Shown here one piece after another: positions 57,345 through 60,065 of a DNA stretch of 64,000 nucleotides. The notes under the pieces were generated by a model that saw only the letters and a program-made list of their open reading frames with translations, did no database searches and was not told the DNA's origin. The stretch spans positions 224,001-288,000 of the forward strand of contig CBDCWP010000030.1 of the NCBI GenBank assembly GCA_965223505.1. Direction: 5' to 3'. The number at the start of each line of letters is the position of its first letter. Position 1 is the first letter of the stretch. The position numbers and the translations under genes were made by a program. Source of the stretch: Planctomycetota bacterium. Its GTDB lineage: Bacteria; Planctomycetota; PLA2; JAEUHO01.

Positions 57345-58094
57345 ATGAGTGCGCTCTTCCTTGCCAACGTCACCCTCATGGGCGTCGCGGCCAGCGTCGC
57401 CCTGGGCCTTGCGATCATCCTGTTTTGGCGACTGAACCGCCGCAACGAGGCGCTGCGGGCCGACATGGACCGCTTGAAGCGCGAGCACGGCGAGGCGACG
57501 GCCGACCTGCGCTCGCGCATCAGCGAGATCGCGCGGCAGGTGGACTCGGTCCACGAGGAGGTGCCTCCGCTCGTGTCGCGCTTCAAGGAGCACATTCCGG
57601 CGCTCGAGACCCGGGTCGAGGGCGCCGAGAAGCAGCTCTCGGCGGTCGAGCGCCAGCTCAAGGCGGCGGCCGAGGGCGTTCAGACCGCGCGCAAGGAGAC
57701 GGACAAGGTGCAGTCCATCGTGACGAAGCGCGAAGCGTCGCTTTCAGAGCTGCGGGAGGCGATCACGCTCCTGCGCGGGACGGTGGACGAGCATCTCGCG
57801 CGCCGGGGCGCCGACCTCGACGCGGAGGAGGCGCAAGCAGGCGCCGCGACGGCGGTCATCGCCAAACCCGCTGCGACGAAAAAGGCCAAGACGAAGGTCG
57901 TGAGCAAGCCGTCGCCCAAGGCCGCGAAGGCGCCGAAGCAGGCGTCCGCGAAAGGAGCGGCGGAGCCGAAGGCGAAGTCGGCGGCGGCGAGCGGCGAGGA
58001 CGGCGCCGACATCTCGGGCGCGCGTTGGATCTTCGTCGTCATGGCGGCGTTGCTCGGCGCCGCGTTGCTGGCCCAGTGGATCCGGACCCAATAG
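57345..58094 (+). CDS. membrane protein with coiled coil and Lys/Ala-rich linker
   Basis: TM helices at both ends, heptad coiled coil, AK-rich low-complexity segment. Confidence 0.7.
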   Translation: MSALFLANVTLMGVAASVALGLAIILFWRLNRRNEALRADMDRLKREHGEATADLRSRISEIARQVDSVHEEVPPLVSRFKEHIPALETRVEGAEKQLSAVERQLKAAAEGVQTARKETDKVQSIVTKREASLSELREAITLLRGTVDEHLARRGADLDAEEAQAGAATAVIAKPAATKKAKTKVVSKPSPKAAKAPKQASAKGAAEPKAKSAAASGEDGADISGARWIFVVMAALLGAALLAQWIRTQ

Positions 58095-58111
58095 CGCGGA
58101 CGGCGAACACG

Positions 58112-58184
58112 GTAGGGGCAGCCCTTGTGGCTGCCCAACCCGGGACGCCAAGACACGCCGAATTGGGCGACCACAAGGGTCGCC
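58112..58184. repeat. REP doublet, left part, interrupted by the IS110-family element
   Basis: GTAGGGGCAGCCCTTGTGGCTGCCC...TTGGGCGACCACAAGGGTCGCC| ; the missing CCTAC is found at 59546-59550. Confidence 0.9.
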
Positions 58185-58189
58185 GGTTT

Positions 58190-58415
58190 AGGGAATGGCA
58201 AGCCCTTTTCTGTCGGCCGTGCGTCCTTTCCGCGTCGCCAGGGTCGGATCCGTCCACTCGGGTTTTCGAGCTCGCCTATTCGGGCGGCGTCATGAGGGGG
58301 AGTCGGACGCGCCTCTCAATCGCCTACACGAGCTGATGCGCTCAGCGGCCCGCCGGAGTACGCGCCCGTTGGTGTCCGATTCCTGGTTTCGCTTCCTCTC
58401 TCTCAGTGCGTTCGC
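58190..58415 (-). ncRNA. putative bridge/seek RNA of the IS1111-like element
   Basis: ~230-nt non-coding end with stem AGCUCG/CGAGCU enclosing UGUAGG and GCCGCCC (target matches) around an inner hairpin; AAACC and AUCC match the donor junction. Boundaries inferred. Confidence 0.6.
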
Positions 58416-59462
58416 TCAGGCAGCCTGGCCTAGGCACCGACGCAGCGAGAACACCTCGCCACGCGAGAACATCACCCACACGCCCACCAGTAGCCGGCGT
58501 GCAAGCGCCATTCGAACCTTGTTGCGGTGCATGCGCCTGAGCATCGGCTGTGCCCACGCCTTCACCTCTGGGTCGAAGGCCAGCAACCGAACCGCCCATT
58601 GCCCCAGCACCCAACGCAACTCGGCGTTTCCGCGTTTGGTCATGCGGCCGTGGTGCGCTCGATCCGCCGAGGCCGAAACGCGTGGAACGACACCCCCATA
58701 GCTCGAGATCTGTCGAGCACCGCGGAAGCGGGTTGCGTCACCCAACTCAGCTTGAAGCGTCAGAGCCGTCTGGGCTCCCGCCTGTGGCAGATTCCGAACG
58801 ATCCAGCCTGAGACTTCGTCCTGCTCGGCCAACTCGCGGATTCGAGCGGTGAGCTTCTCGATGCGCTCCTGCAGAGCCGCAACGACATCCACCAGCGACT
58901 GCAGCGCCAGATCCTGGTTCTCATCACCCAGTCGCTGCTCGCGAAGCCACTGGATCCCGCGCTTGGTGTACAGCTGCGTCACCGGCGCTCGCAGCAGGTA
59001 CGCGTTGAGCATGCCGCGGATGTGCGCCAGCACGCTGGTTCGATGCTGAACGAGCTGATGCCGAACCCGCAACACCTTGCGCTGGCCGAACTCGGCTTCG
59101 GTGGCGAAGTAGGTCAGTGCGTAGCGGTCCAGGTCGCCAAGGTACAGCCGGCGCGAGATCTCCTGGGCGTCGCGTCGATCCGTCTTCTTGCCCTGCTTCT
59201 TCAGATCGAGCTTCGTGGCGTCCACCACAAGCATCTCCAAACCCGCTTCGCGGCAGGCCAGCACGAACCAGCGGTTGCAGCCCAACGCTTCCACCGCGAA
59301 GCGCCCGCCGCCGTAGGTGCCAAGAAACGCAACCAGCGCCGCGGCCGCCTTTCGATCCGGCAGGCGCCACCGCCGCTCCTCTTCGATCTCGCCCTTCGCA
59401 TCACGGACGCAGATTTGGGCGACACTCTTGTGCAGGTCGATTCCGACGTGGTACGCAGTCAT
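58416..59462 (-). CDS. IS110-family transposase (DEDD RuvC-like + Ser-containing Tnp domain)
   Basis: HVGIDLHK (D), AVEALG (E), KKTDRRDA (DD), GVVPRVSASA (Ser), GRMTKRGNAELRW, MALARRL; GAGGAAGG upstream of the ATG. Confidence 0.95.
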   Translation of the reverse strand: MTAYHVGIDLHKSVAQICVRDAKGEIEEERRWRLPDRKAAAALVAFLGTYGGGRFAVEALGCNRWFVLACREAGLEMLVVDATKLDLKKQGKKTDRRDAQEISRRLYLGDLDRYALTYFATEAEFGQRKVLRVRHQLVQHRTSVLAHIRGMLNAYLLRAPVTQLYTKRGIQWLREQRLGDENQDLALQSLVDVVAALQERIEKLTARIRELAEQDEVSGWIVRNLPQAGAQTALTLQAELGDATRFRGARQISSYGGVVPRVSASADRAHHGRMTKRGNAELRWVLGQWAVRLLAFDPEVKAWAQPMLRRMHRNKVRMALARRLLVGVWVMFSRGEVFSLRRCLGQAA

Positions 59463-59620
59463 GGGGTGGCAGTTCCTTCCTCGGCTGATGCCGTAAACAC
59501 ACTTGGCACGACCGAGGATCAGGGCTGCCACCCCCTATCCCATCCCCTACCTCCGCACCCGCGTTCACCGCCTCGCGGTCCGGGGTGTCGTGCACGATCA
59601 CGTTCACGTGCCGATTCCCC

Positions 59621-59698
59621 GTAGGGGCAGCCCTTGTGGCTGCCCAACCCGTGACGCCAAGACACACGCCATTGGGCGACCACGAGGGTCGCCCCTAC
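59621..59698. repeat. intact REP doublet, near-identical to the interrupted one
   Basis: GTAGGGGCAGCCCTTGTGGCTGCCCAACCCGTGACGCCAAGACACACGCCATTGGGCGACCACGAGGGTCGCCCCTAC. Confidence 0.92.
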
Positions 59699-59741
59699 AA
59701 ACCCGTAGCCGACAGATCACCACCCGTGGGAGATGACGGCG

Positions 59742-60065
59742 CTAGTCGCCCTTCTTGCGTACCAACGTCACGAGGAACGCTGCGTTCTCGGTTCCGGGAT
59801 TGCTCGGACCTGCCGGCTTCGAACCGTCATAGAACGCGAGATCGCCCTTGGTGACCTCCGCGTCGCCTTCGCCGGGCGTGACGCGCACGGCCCCTTCGAG
59901 GCAGTACAGGATTGCCTCGCGCCGGCGATGGGTGAACGGCGTGAGCCCTTGTCCGGGCTTCAGACACACCAGCGTCACGATCGACCGGTCGGTCTCGATG
60001 ATCTTCTTCGTGAACGGACCGTCGTCGCGGAACTCCATCCACTGCTCTACGGAACGCGTGTCCAT
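59742..60065 (-). CDS. cupin-domain protein
   Basis: LVCLKPGQGL.PFTH..EAILYCLEG.V...G....V.KGDL cupin pattern. Confidence 0.8.
   Translation of the reverse strand: MDTRSVEQWMEFRDDGPFTKKIIETDRSIVTLVCLKPGQGLTPFTHRRREAILYCLEGAVRVTPGEGDAEVTKGDLAFYDGSKPAGPSNPGTENAAFLVTLVRKKGD

Follow-up and report, generated by a model that had tools for sequence, protein, structure and literature searches.

We describe a 1361-bp insertion sequence that interrupts a repetitive extragenic palindromic (REP) sequence in a Planctomycetota bacterium. It lies in a 64,000-nt stretch of the genome (positions 224,001 to 288,000 of contig CBDCWP010000030.1, assembly GCA_965223505.1), which is called the window here and whose numbering is used throughout. 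The element spans 58185-59545 on the minus strand, a length that includes one copy of a 2-bp core (59544-59545). As far as its sequence can tell, it is an autonomous insertion sequence of the IS110 family and, within that family, of the IS1111 group. We put at roughly 85% the probability that it is an RNA-guided element of the IS1111 type that recombines its joined ends with the outer foot of one REP arm. This reading is built on four things that the sequences show: insertion is site-specific, the element has the anatomy described below, an RNA scaffold downstream of its gene is conserved, and candidate guides covary with flanks in relatives.

On the window strand, the left flank reads ...CAAGGGTCGCC up to 58184, and the element starts at 58185 with GGTTTAGGG. 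The element ends in ...CCCATCC at 59545, and the right flank begins at 59546 with CCTAC. When 58185-59545 is excised in silico, the flanks join to give GGGTCGCCCCTAC, which has the same letters as the uninterrupted target at 59686-59698. That target belongs to an intact sister REP doublet (59621-59698, plus strand) located 76 bp beyond the element. Only CC is shared by both junctions (58183-58184 and 59544-59545). By sequence reading, arm 1 of the interrupted doublet (58112-58136, plus strand) is intact and of the GTAGGGGCAGCC... type, an arm type that occurs 130 times in the genome as GTAGGGGCAGCCC. Arm 2 is split into an inner part of 20 nt (GGGCGACCACAAGGGTCGCC; 58165-58184, plus strand), a flank common to all four full copies of the element in the genome, and an outer part of 5 nt (CCTAC; 59546-59550, plus strand). 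Read on the element strand, the inner part is the core plus the right target, the CC at 58183-58184 being one copy of the 2-bp core, and the outer part is the left target, GTAGG. The whole target on that strand is GTAGG-GG-CGA(C/T)CC, where hyphens set off the core, and the 2-bp GG core is present at both junctions.

The host assembly (44 contigs, 5.15 Mb, 92.5% complete) was searched with the 1361-bp sequence as the query. Matches were found at six places: four full copies, and two adjoining pieces on contig C40 that make up one rearranged fragment. The full copies span query positions 1-1361 at 100% identity, with a single base different in one of them. All four have the flanks ...GGGCGACCAC(A/T)(A/G)GG(G/A)TCGCC before the element and CCTAC after it, which means that the same bond of the same REP arm is split each time, and the sequences outside the REP are unrelated among the four on both sides. 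The C40 fragment retains the left-target junction, ...CATCC-CCTAC. A first-pass annotation, made by a model from the letters of the window, had claimed a site-specific insertion into a REP with a 2-bp core, an excision product identical to the sister REP end and no long target-site duplication. All of this is borne out by the junctions and by the four full copies, which overlap the target by CC/GG only, and such recurrence goes far beyond coincidence. No copy was found at an unrelated sequence, the fragment included, and the ends of the element map exactly where they had been placed.

The copies might instead have been spread by homologous recombination from REP to REP, or by duplication of REP-flanked segments, and the element might now be inert. 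We regard this as very improbable. Although every copy is flanked by REPs that could support recombination, and the C40 copy is rearranged beside REP sequence, the four full copies stop being identical at exactly the same two bases, and outside the REP neither flank resembles those of the other copies. In addition, a REP that is always split at a single phosphodiester bond, with 2 bp of overlap, is the signature of IS110-family insertion, gene and ends are undamaged, and no copy differs from another by more than one base.

The locus is represented in four public sequencing runs, which come from one study and two samples and are available as contigs; no RNA run is listed. These contigs bear on the idea that a repeated contig piece was misplaced beside REPs during assembly, which we find scarcely credible. 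The assembly does consist of 44 contigs, and the independent contig set does break at REPs. However, contigs of both samples extend from inside the element over the right junction into unique sequence with 0 differences (58121-59590 in the piece from run X1 and 58162-59647 in the piece from run X4), and complementary halves of one REP arm are found at both junctions in all four places. None of the contigs from these runs joins 58184 directly to 59546; the two listed joints that do skip sequence link REP copies with other letters between them. A circle joint was likewise not found among them, and contig-only data are uninformative on this either way.

Over 220 arms of this REP family are present in the genome. 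A census of intact arms counted 92 of the GTAGGGGCGACCC type, 130 of the sister type GTAGGGGCAGCCC, 4 GTAGGGGCGGCCC and 1 GTAGGGGCGATCC; the 92 intact sites support the earlier naming of a GTAG REP family as the target. Occupied sites, scored as GTAGGGG followed by the first bases of the element, number five, or about 5% of the preferred sites. All four insertions with a preserved right side are in CGA(C/T)CC arms, an outcome expected about 3 times in 100 if both arm types were used equally. This is a modest signal of a preference for CGA(C/T)CC arms over sister arms. For the host genome, the element explains a multi-copy repeat and shows the REP family to be a landing pad. The REPs form a large family of GTAG-type doublets. 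No Y1/RAYT (REP-associated tyrosine) transposase (PF01797) was found in the host assembly, at its 92.5% completeness; control genomes gave matches.

Two further observations concern the same genome. The fragment on C40 (226615-227210; loci L005, L006, L017 and L018) consists of the left end and the first third of the transposase gene fused to an inverted internal piece; it lacks the RNA region, and REP sequence abuts the break. This rearrangement could be decay or misassembly. A second, different IS110-family gene is present on the same contig as the window, about 20 kb before it (C30:203722-204150; PF01548, 48.8 bits; open frame of 356 aa).

The element carries one gene, on the minus strand at 58416-59462, for a transposase or bridge recombinase of 348 aa, which was delimited with PF01548, PF02371, NF033542 and an alignment of homologues. 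The ATG at 59462 was taken as the start codon, and not the GTG at 59531 of the longest open reading frame, because 20/20 aligned homologues begin at the equivalent Met. The protein matches the Pfam families PF01548 (DEDD_Tnp_IS110; E 5e-11) and PF02371 (Transposase_20; E 2.8e-19), as well as the NCBIfam model NF033542, 'IS110 family RNA-guided transposase', with 181.5 bits against a cut-off of 140. Counted from Met1, the catalytic residues are D9, E58, D95 and D98 together with Ser265, the Ser of a G-x-x-P-x-x-x-x-S-A motif; these four acidic residues and the Ser are invariant in 21/21 aligned sequences. When a profile of 21 homologues was compared with solved structures, IS621 was the best match in the PDB (E 1.3e-17), followed by ISCro4 (1e-15). 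With the profile, the GID, E and KTDxxDA motifs and the Ser of P-R-x-x-x-S align with IS621, at residues that we take to be catalytic in that protein. A search with the single sequence aligned only the C-terminal part with IS621 (E 2.3e-5).

A local alignment of the upstream region with the reverse-complemented downstream region identified an imperfect sub-terminal inverted repeat of 17-18 bp, with TAGGGGGTGGCAGCCCT as its left core part and TAGGGAATGGCAAGCCCT as its right one. The left core part (59521-59537, minus strand) begins 8 nt from the left end, and the right core part (58189-58206, minus strand) stops 4 nt short of the right end. In relatives the repeat also starts with TAG or TAA and has identical offsets. 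The non-coding ends are unequal, with 83 nt upstream of the gene and 231 nt downstream. The first-pass annotation was accurate on these parts too: it had read the transposase as intact, with its DEDD and Ser residues, the inverted repeats as sub-terminal and imperfect, and the long non-coding end as lying downstream of the gene. In the available parts of the published accounts, to which all statements on published elements below are limited, sub-terminal repeats and a longer downstream non-coding end distinguish the IS1111 group from the IS110 group. The element was placed in the IS1111 group for its sub-terminal inverted repeats and because its non-coding end is longer downstream (231 nt) than upstream (83 nt); it has the IS110 features that were tested and, as far as they can be tested, the IS1111 ones.

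Named families were compared by way of plasmid-borne proteins. The nearest are ISHvo10 (33% identity), ISPa25 (29%) and IS5075/IS4321 (24%), with alignments over 96% of the protein. We take these three as IS1111-type: the seekRNA paper describes ISHvo10 as a diverged relative of the IS1111 cluster, IS4321/IS5075 are called IS1111-type in the titles of published references, and ISPa25 is treated with the IS1111 members. A search of 5.8 billion clustered proteins gave a nearest match of 79% identity, with no other above 70%; almost all of these matches come from contigs of 1.2-2.5 kb. Six of 41 related genomes (the 40 nearest and the host), the host among them, have a match at E 1e-30 or better, the best being 53% identical over the full length and 63% over part of it. 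Full-length relatives with 44-56% identity were collected from species-representative genomes (69 loci) and JGI metagenomes (11 loci) and are labelled Planctomycetota, Gemmatimonadota, Myxococcota, Krumholzibacteria, Anaerolineales and others.

Several of these relatives are of interest for their own sites. One record of a complete Myxococcota chromosome holds at least four copies of a relative with 54-58% identity (L027, L028, L042 and L044). The relatives L097, L098, L038 and L039, and likewise L031-L033, L035 and L037, sit mid-way in short palindromes; the target is TTGCGCC-GG-CGCAA in one group and six C followed by six G in another, with the outer bases varying among copies of the same element. 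Six loci in metagenome-assembled genomes (MAGs) of different phyla (L024, L027, L028, L088, L092 and L095) have homologous flanks over about 20 bp per side, ...GAGCTGTGG..-GG-TCAGCTGCAGCGCCTTGTTAGGCGGC. Their common target may itself be mobile or a widely shared repeat.

The downstream non-coding end holds a candidate seek or bridge RNA. Alignments and folds point to a conserved scaffold of about 130 nt with two loop domains (58242-58372, minus strand), which can be aligned in 22 loci from MAGs of Planctomycetota, Gemmatimonadota, Myxococcota, Krumholzibacteria and others. Domain 1 has a common design in 22/22 minimum free energy (MFE) folds, which were computed from single sequences and read manually from their dot-bracket strings: a closing helix, a bulge of 1-2 bases, a short second helix, and then an internal loop that has a small hairpin at its centre. 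Judged by homology with the L019 and L036 folds, this hairpin is at 58330-58343 (minus strand), between the target guides. A strict scripted count found the closing helix of domain 1 in 15/22 sequences; in the other seven, the helix follows after one to three outer pairs. The sequence of the closing helix varies by lineage (for example CGGUGGCGC/GCGCCACCG, CGGUGCCGG/CCGGCACCG, GGAGGUGG/CCACCUCC and GUCAGGU/GCCUGGC).

Candidate guides were assigned by two published rules. In the first, from the IS621 work, top-strand pairing belongs to the right guide and bottom-strand pairing to the left one, and both guides include the core; in the second, the top-strand match of IS1111 elements comes first. 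The ends of relatives were set solely by a repeat-offset rule learnt from this element. The right target guide, GGGCCG-CU, is on the 5' side of loop 1 (58344-58351, minus strand; element positions 1195-1202), and 7/8 pairs are predicted between it and the top strand GG+CGACCC, with one G.U pair and one C.A mismatch. On the 3' side of the same loop is the left target guide, GUAGG-CG (58321-58327, minus strand; element positions 1219-1225), which has the same sense as GTAGG plus the core. The left donor guide, AAACC-CG, is in loop 2 just before a conserved UGGAC (58259-58265, minus strand) and has the same sense as the last five nucleotides of the element, AAACC, plus the core. The order of the two target matches, top strand 5' and bottom strand 3', agrees with published IS1111 seekRNAs.

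These three segments were compared with the flanks and ends of relatives. A free longest-common-substring comparison of guides and flanks was dropped because, with the left target guide, it did poorly at telling cognate and non-cognate pairs apart; therefore, fixed-register and fixed-length measures were used. With the left target guide in a fixed register, identity to the cognate flank averages 5.0/6 over 7 lineages compared to 1.73 over 56 non-cognate pairs, eight of which reach 4 and one of which reaches 6. For the left donor guide, the cognate value is 4.88/5 (8 lineages) compared to 2.80 in 64 non-cognate pairs, where sixteen reach 4 and two reach 5. The right ends of relatives comprise at least five distinct sequences (AAACC, AAACG, A/GAAG, AAAGA, AAGGA and AAAGG), and the RNA matches 4 or 5 of the 5 nt in every lineage. 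The best 8-nt duplex of the right target guide gives 7.0/8 for cognate targets (8 lineages) and 5.43 for 56 non-cognate pairs; 4/56 of the latter reach 7 and none reaches 8, and the best cognate duplex is nearly always at one loop offset. The locus L036 serves as an internal control. It has a GA core at both junctions. In its RNA, each same-sense guide is followed by CA and the right target guide by UC, compared to CG and to CU or CC, respectively, in lineages with a GG core. Misfits are the left flank of L019 (3/6 guide match), the right end of L040, which is off the rule, and L023 and L091 (4/6 each). The sequences support the earlier suggestion of a readable target, in that segments of the scaffold loops match the REP half-sites and the right end of the element and covary with them in relatives. 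In L091 (1284-1409), on a contig that stops before the right flank, the scaffold matches the one in the L092 group almost letter for letter, yet both target-guide positions differ; by its sequence, this looks like natural retargeting.

Joining the ends in silico yields a candidate promoter in 11/11 loci, in which the right end supplies the -35 hexamer and the left end, from its position 7, the -10 hexamer, with 17 nt between them. Here, the -35-like hexamer is TTGCCA (58196-58201, minus strand) and the -10-like hexamer is GATAGG (59534-59539, minus strand), 17 nt apart on the joined ends. The junction promoters of the ten relatives range from TTGACG-17-CATAGA (8/12) to TTGACA-17-TATAGG (10/12). 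No sigma-70-like promoter was found inside the integrated copy, though the consensus may not suit the host phylum. The left repeat is also part of a predicted leader hairpin (MFE -46.5 kcal/mol): its element positions 12-21 (of 9-25; window positions 59525-59534) form the 5' arm and pair with a 3' arm directly upstream of the ATG (59463-59472, minus strand). Such pairing of the left repeat with bases upstream of the start codon is found in 11/11 loci, with sequences that differ by lineage. Junction promoters have been published for ISEc11, IS621 and ISPpu10.

From these parts and from published elements, the following mechanism can be proposed. An RNA from the 231-nt region downstream of the gene would be made and bound by the DEDD/Ser recombinase. 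Recombinase and RNA would then join the donor, formed by the joined ends of the element, to the target GTAGG-GG-CGACCC at the outer foot of a REP arm. The left target guide and the left donor guide would pair with the bottom strands of the left target and of the right end, respectively, and the crossover would occur within the 2-bp GG core common to donor and target, which would explain why there is no target duplication. Movement would proceed via a circle, whose junction would make the promoter from a -35 in the right end and a -10 in the left end. In transcripts reading in from outside, the left repeat would fold onto the start-codon region and block translation. Transcripts started at the junction would be missing most of the hairpin's 5' arm, so translation would be favoured from the circle and blocked in read-through.

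Several results weigh against this mechanism or lend it no support. The RNA, the circle and the movement are drawn by analogy from work on IS621, ISEc11 and ISPa11. The entire non-coding end is no more stable than shuffled sequence (z = +1.03), and RNAalifold returned 0 pairs from a MAFFT alignment of the 22 scaffold sequences, for which reason helices were judged from single-sequence folds. We ascribe the 0 pairs to misaligned 3' strands, but the result remains negative. No Rfam family matches the scaffold; a scan of 57900-59900 with E up to 10 gave four matches, all far below their gathering scores. The junction promoter of this element, TTGCCA-17-GATAGG, scores 8/12 and is weaker than those of the relatives (8-10/12; 9-10 in nine of ten). 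The residue after the catalytic Ser is Ala in place of the usual Gly, as in 19/21 sequences of the alignment, with Gly in 2/21; the seekRNA paper gives SG, TG and occasionally TA in the C-terminal motif of IS1111 elements. A right donor guide was not found when the 5' side of loop 2 was compared by eye with the left ends of all lineages, no segment there covarying with them. In both same-sense guides, the first core position is C in the RNA compared to G in the DNA. These guides are followed by CG in 21/22 loci (CA in L036), and the core is GG in nearly all lineages with mapped ends; therefore, C would face C on the bottom strand at the first core position, a mismatch. Finally, all observed targets leave the right target guide with a C.A mismatch. 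The guide pairs at 7/8 with CGACCC, CGATCC and the unused CAGCCC (130 sites) alike, and at 8/8 with the rare CGGCCC variant (4 sites, none occupied).

The behavior of the right target guide raises the question of whether the recombinase finds the REP mainly by hairpin shape or by direct protein-DNA contacts, with the RNA matches being incidental or a second check. Its pair count does fail to separate used from unused arms, the insertion point is at the foot of a GC-rich REP hairpin, and a 2026 preprint on ISPpu10 reports, in its available part, that the target stem-loop is a second specificity determinant. However, three separate RNA segments track flanks and ends over lineages with unrelated targets, including a change of a core base, and the insertion sites of the relatives differ in sequence. 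We consider recognition mainly by shape or protein contacts to be unlikely and retain RNA-guided recombination as the preferred reading. The C.A mismatch is at the third base after the core in used arms and at the second base in unused arms, and this position, or the REP hairpin as reported for ISPpu10, could contribute to the choice of arm.

A broader proposal, which we put forward tentatively and at clearly less than even odds, is that the element belongs to an uncharacterised, deep-branching IS1111-like clade across several mostly uncultivated phyla. This clade would use a compact two-loop RNA that reads the core asymmetrically, with an invariant C at the first core position and a second position that covaries (G or A), and the right target guide would tolerate an internal mismatch, with arm choice determined by mismatch position or hairpin. 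If true, asymmetric core reading would be a natural variant that bears on the order of strand exchange and on the off-target rules of bridge recombinases. These and the seek-RNA recombinases are under development as programmable tools for DNA insertion, and orthologues with readable donor, target and guides are useful starting points. In this element, the target is defined to 13 nt, the core is GG and the 3' RNA is compact, and its relatives have naturally reprogrammed guides.

The element can be compared with several characterised systems. REP-specific insertion was shown in 2006 for ISPa11, ISPpu9, ISPpu10 and others; work published in 2024 described the RNA-guided mechanism with its 2-nt core and placed the RNA of IS1111 members on the 3' side. 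ISPa11, an IS1111-group element of Pseudomonas aeruginosa, is like this element in being of IS1111 type and in occupying a fixed position in the host REP. Its transposase co-purifies with RNA from downstream of the gene, in which the top-strand match is 5' of the bottom-strand match, as here. Unlike ISPa11, our element has a different REP family and target, its nearest named families are at most 33% identical, and it is known from sequence alone. ISEc11, of the IS1111 group in E. coli and Shigella, shares the sub-terminal repeats and the downstream non-coding region. That region yields a seekRNA of 82 nt, joining of the ends creates a junction promoter, and changes to guide and flank have reprogrammed ISEc11. 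In contrast to ISEc11, the target here is different, and the scaffold of about 130 nt also has a segment matching the element's own right end; the available part of the ISEc11 account describes no donor match.

IS621, of the IS110 group in E. coli, also has a DEDD/Ser recombinase, a bridge RNA whose left and right guides each include the 2-nt core, and REP-associated targets. It differs in that its RNA is upstream of the gene, the guide order is reversed, the core is CT and not GG, and its sub-terminal repeats are short (2-3 bp). ISPpu10 and ISPpu9, IS110-group elements of Pseudomonas putida, likewise insert into REPs at one set position about a conserved dinucleotide; a hybrid junction promoter is described for ISPpu10, and a target stem-loop is reported to act as an extra specificity gate. 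Unlike the element described here, both belong to the IS110 group and have no long sub-terminal repeats, and ISPpu9 has its own promoter and extra small RNAs. The closest named family by sequence is ISHvo10 of Haloferax (97% of the protein aligned, 33% identity), which differs in being archaeal, in its reported long non-coding regions on both sides and in the low similarity of its protein. Among the papers that our search of the literature on IS110 elements and bridge RNAs listed, none mentions Planctomycetes. REP-targeting IS110/IS1111 elements, 2-nt cores, junction promoters and 3' seek or bridge RNAs are already published, and this element leaves the known mechanism unchanged. What is new is the lineage, which is at most 33% identical to named insertion sequence families and 79% identical to its nearest neighbour, together with a different REP family as the target and the details of the RNA.

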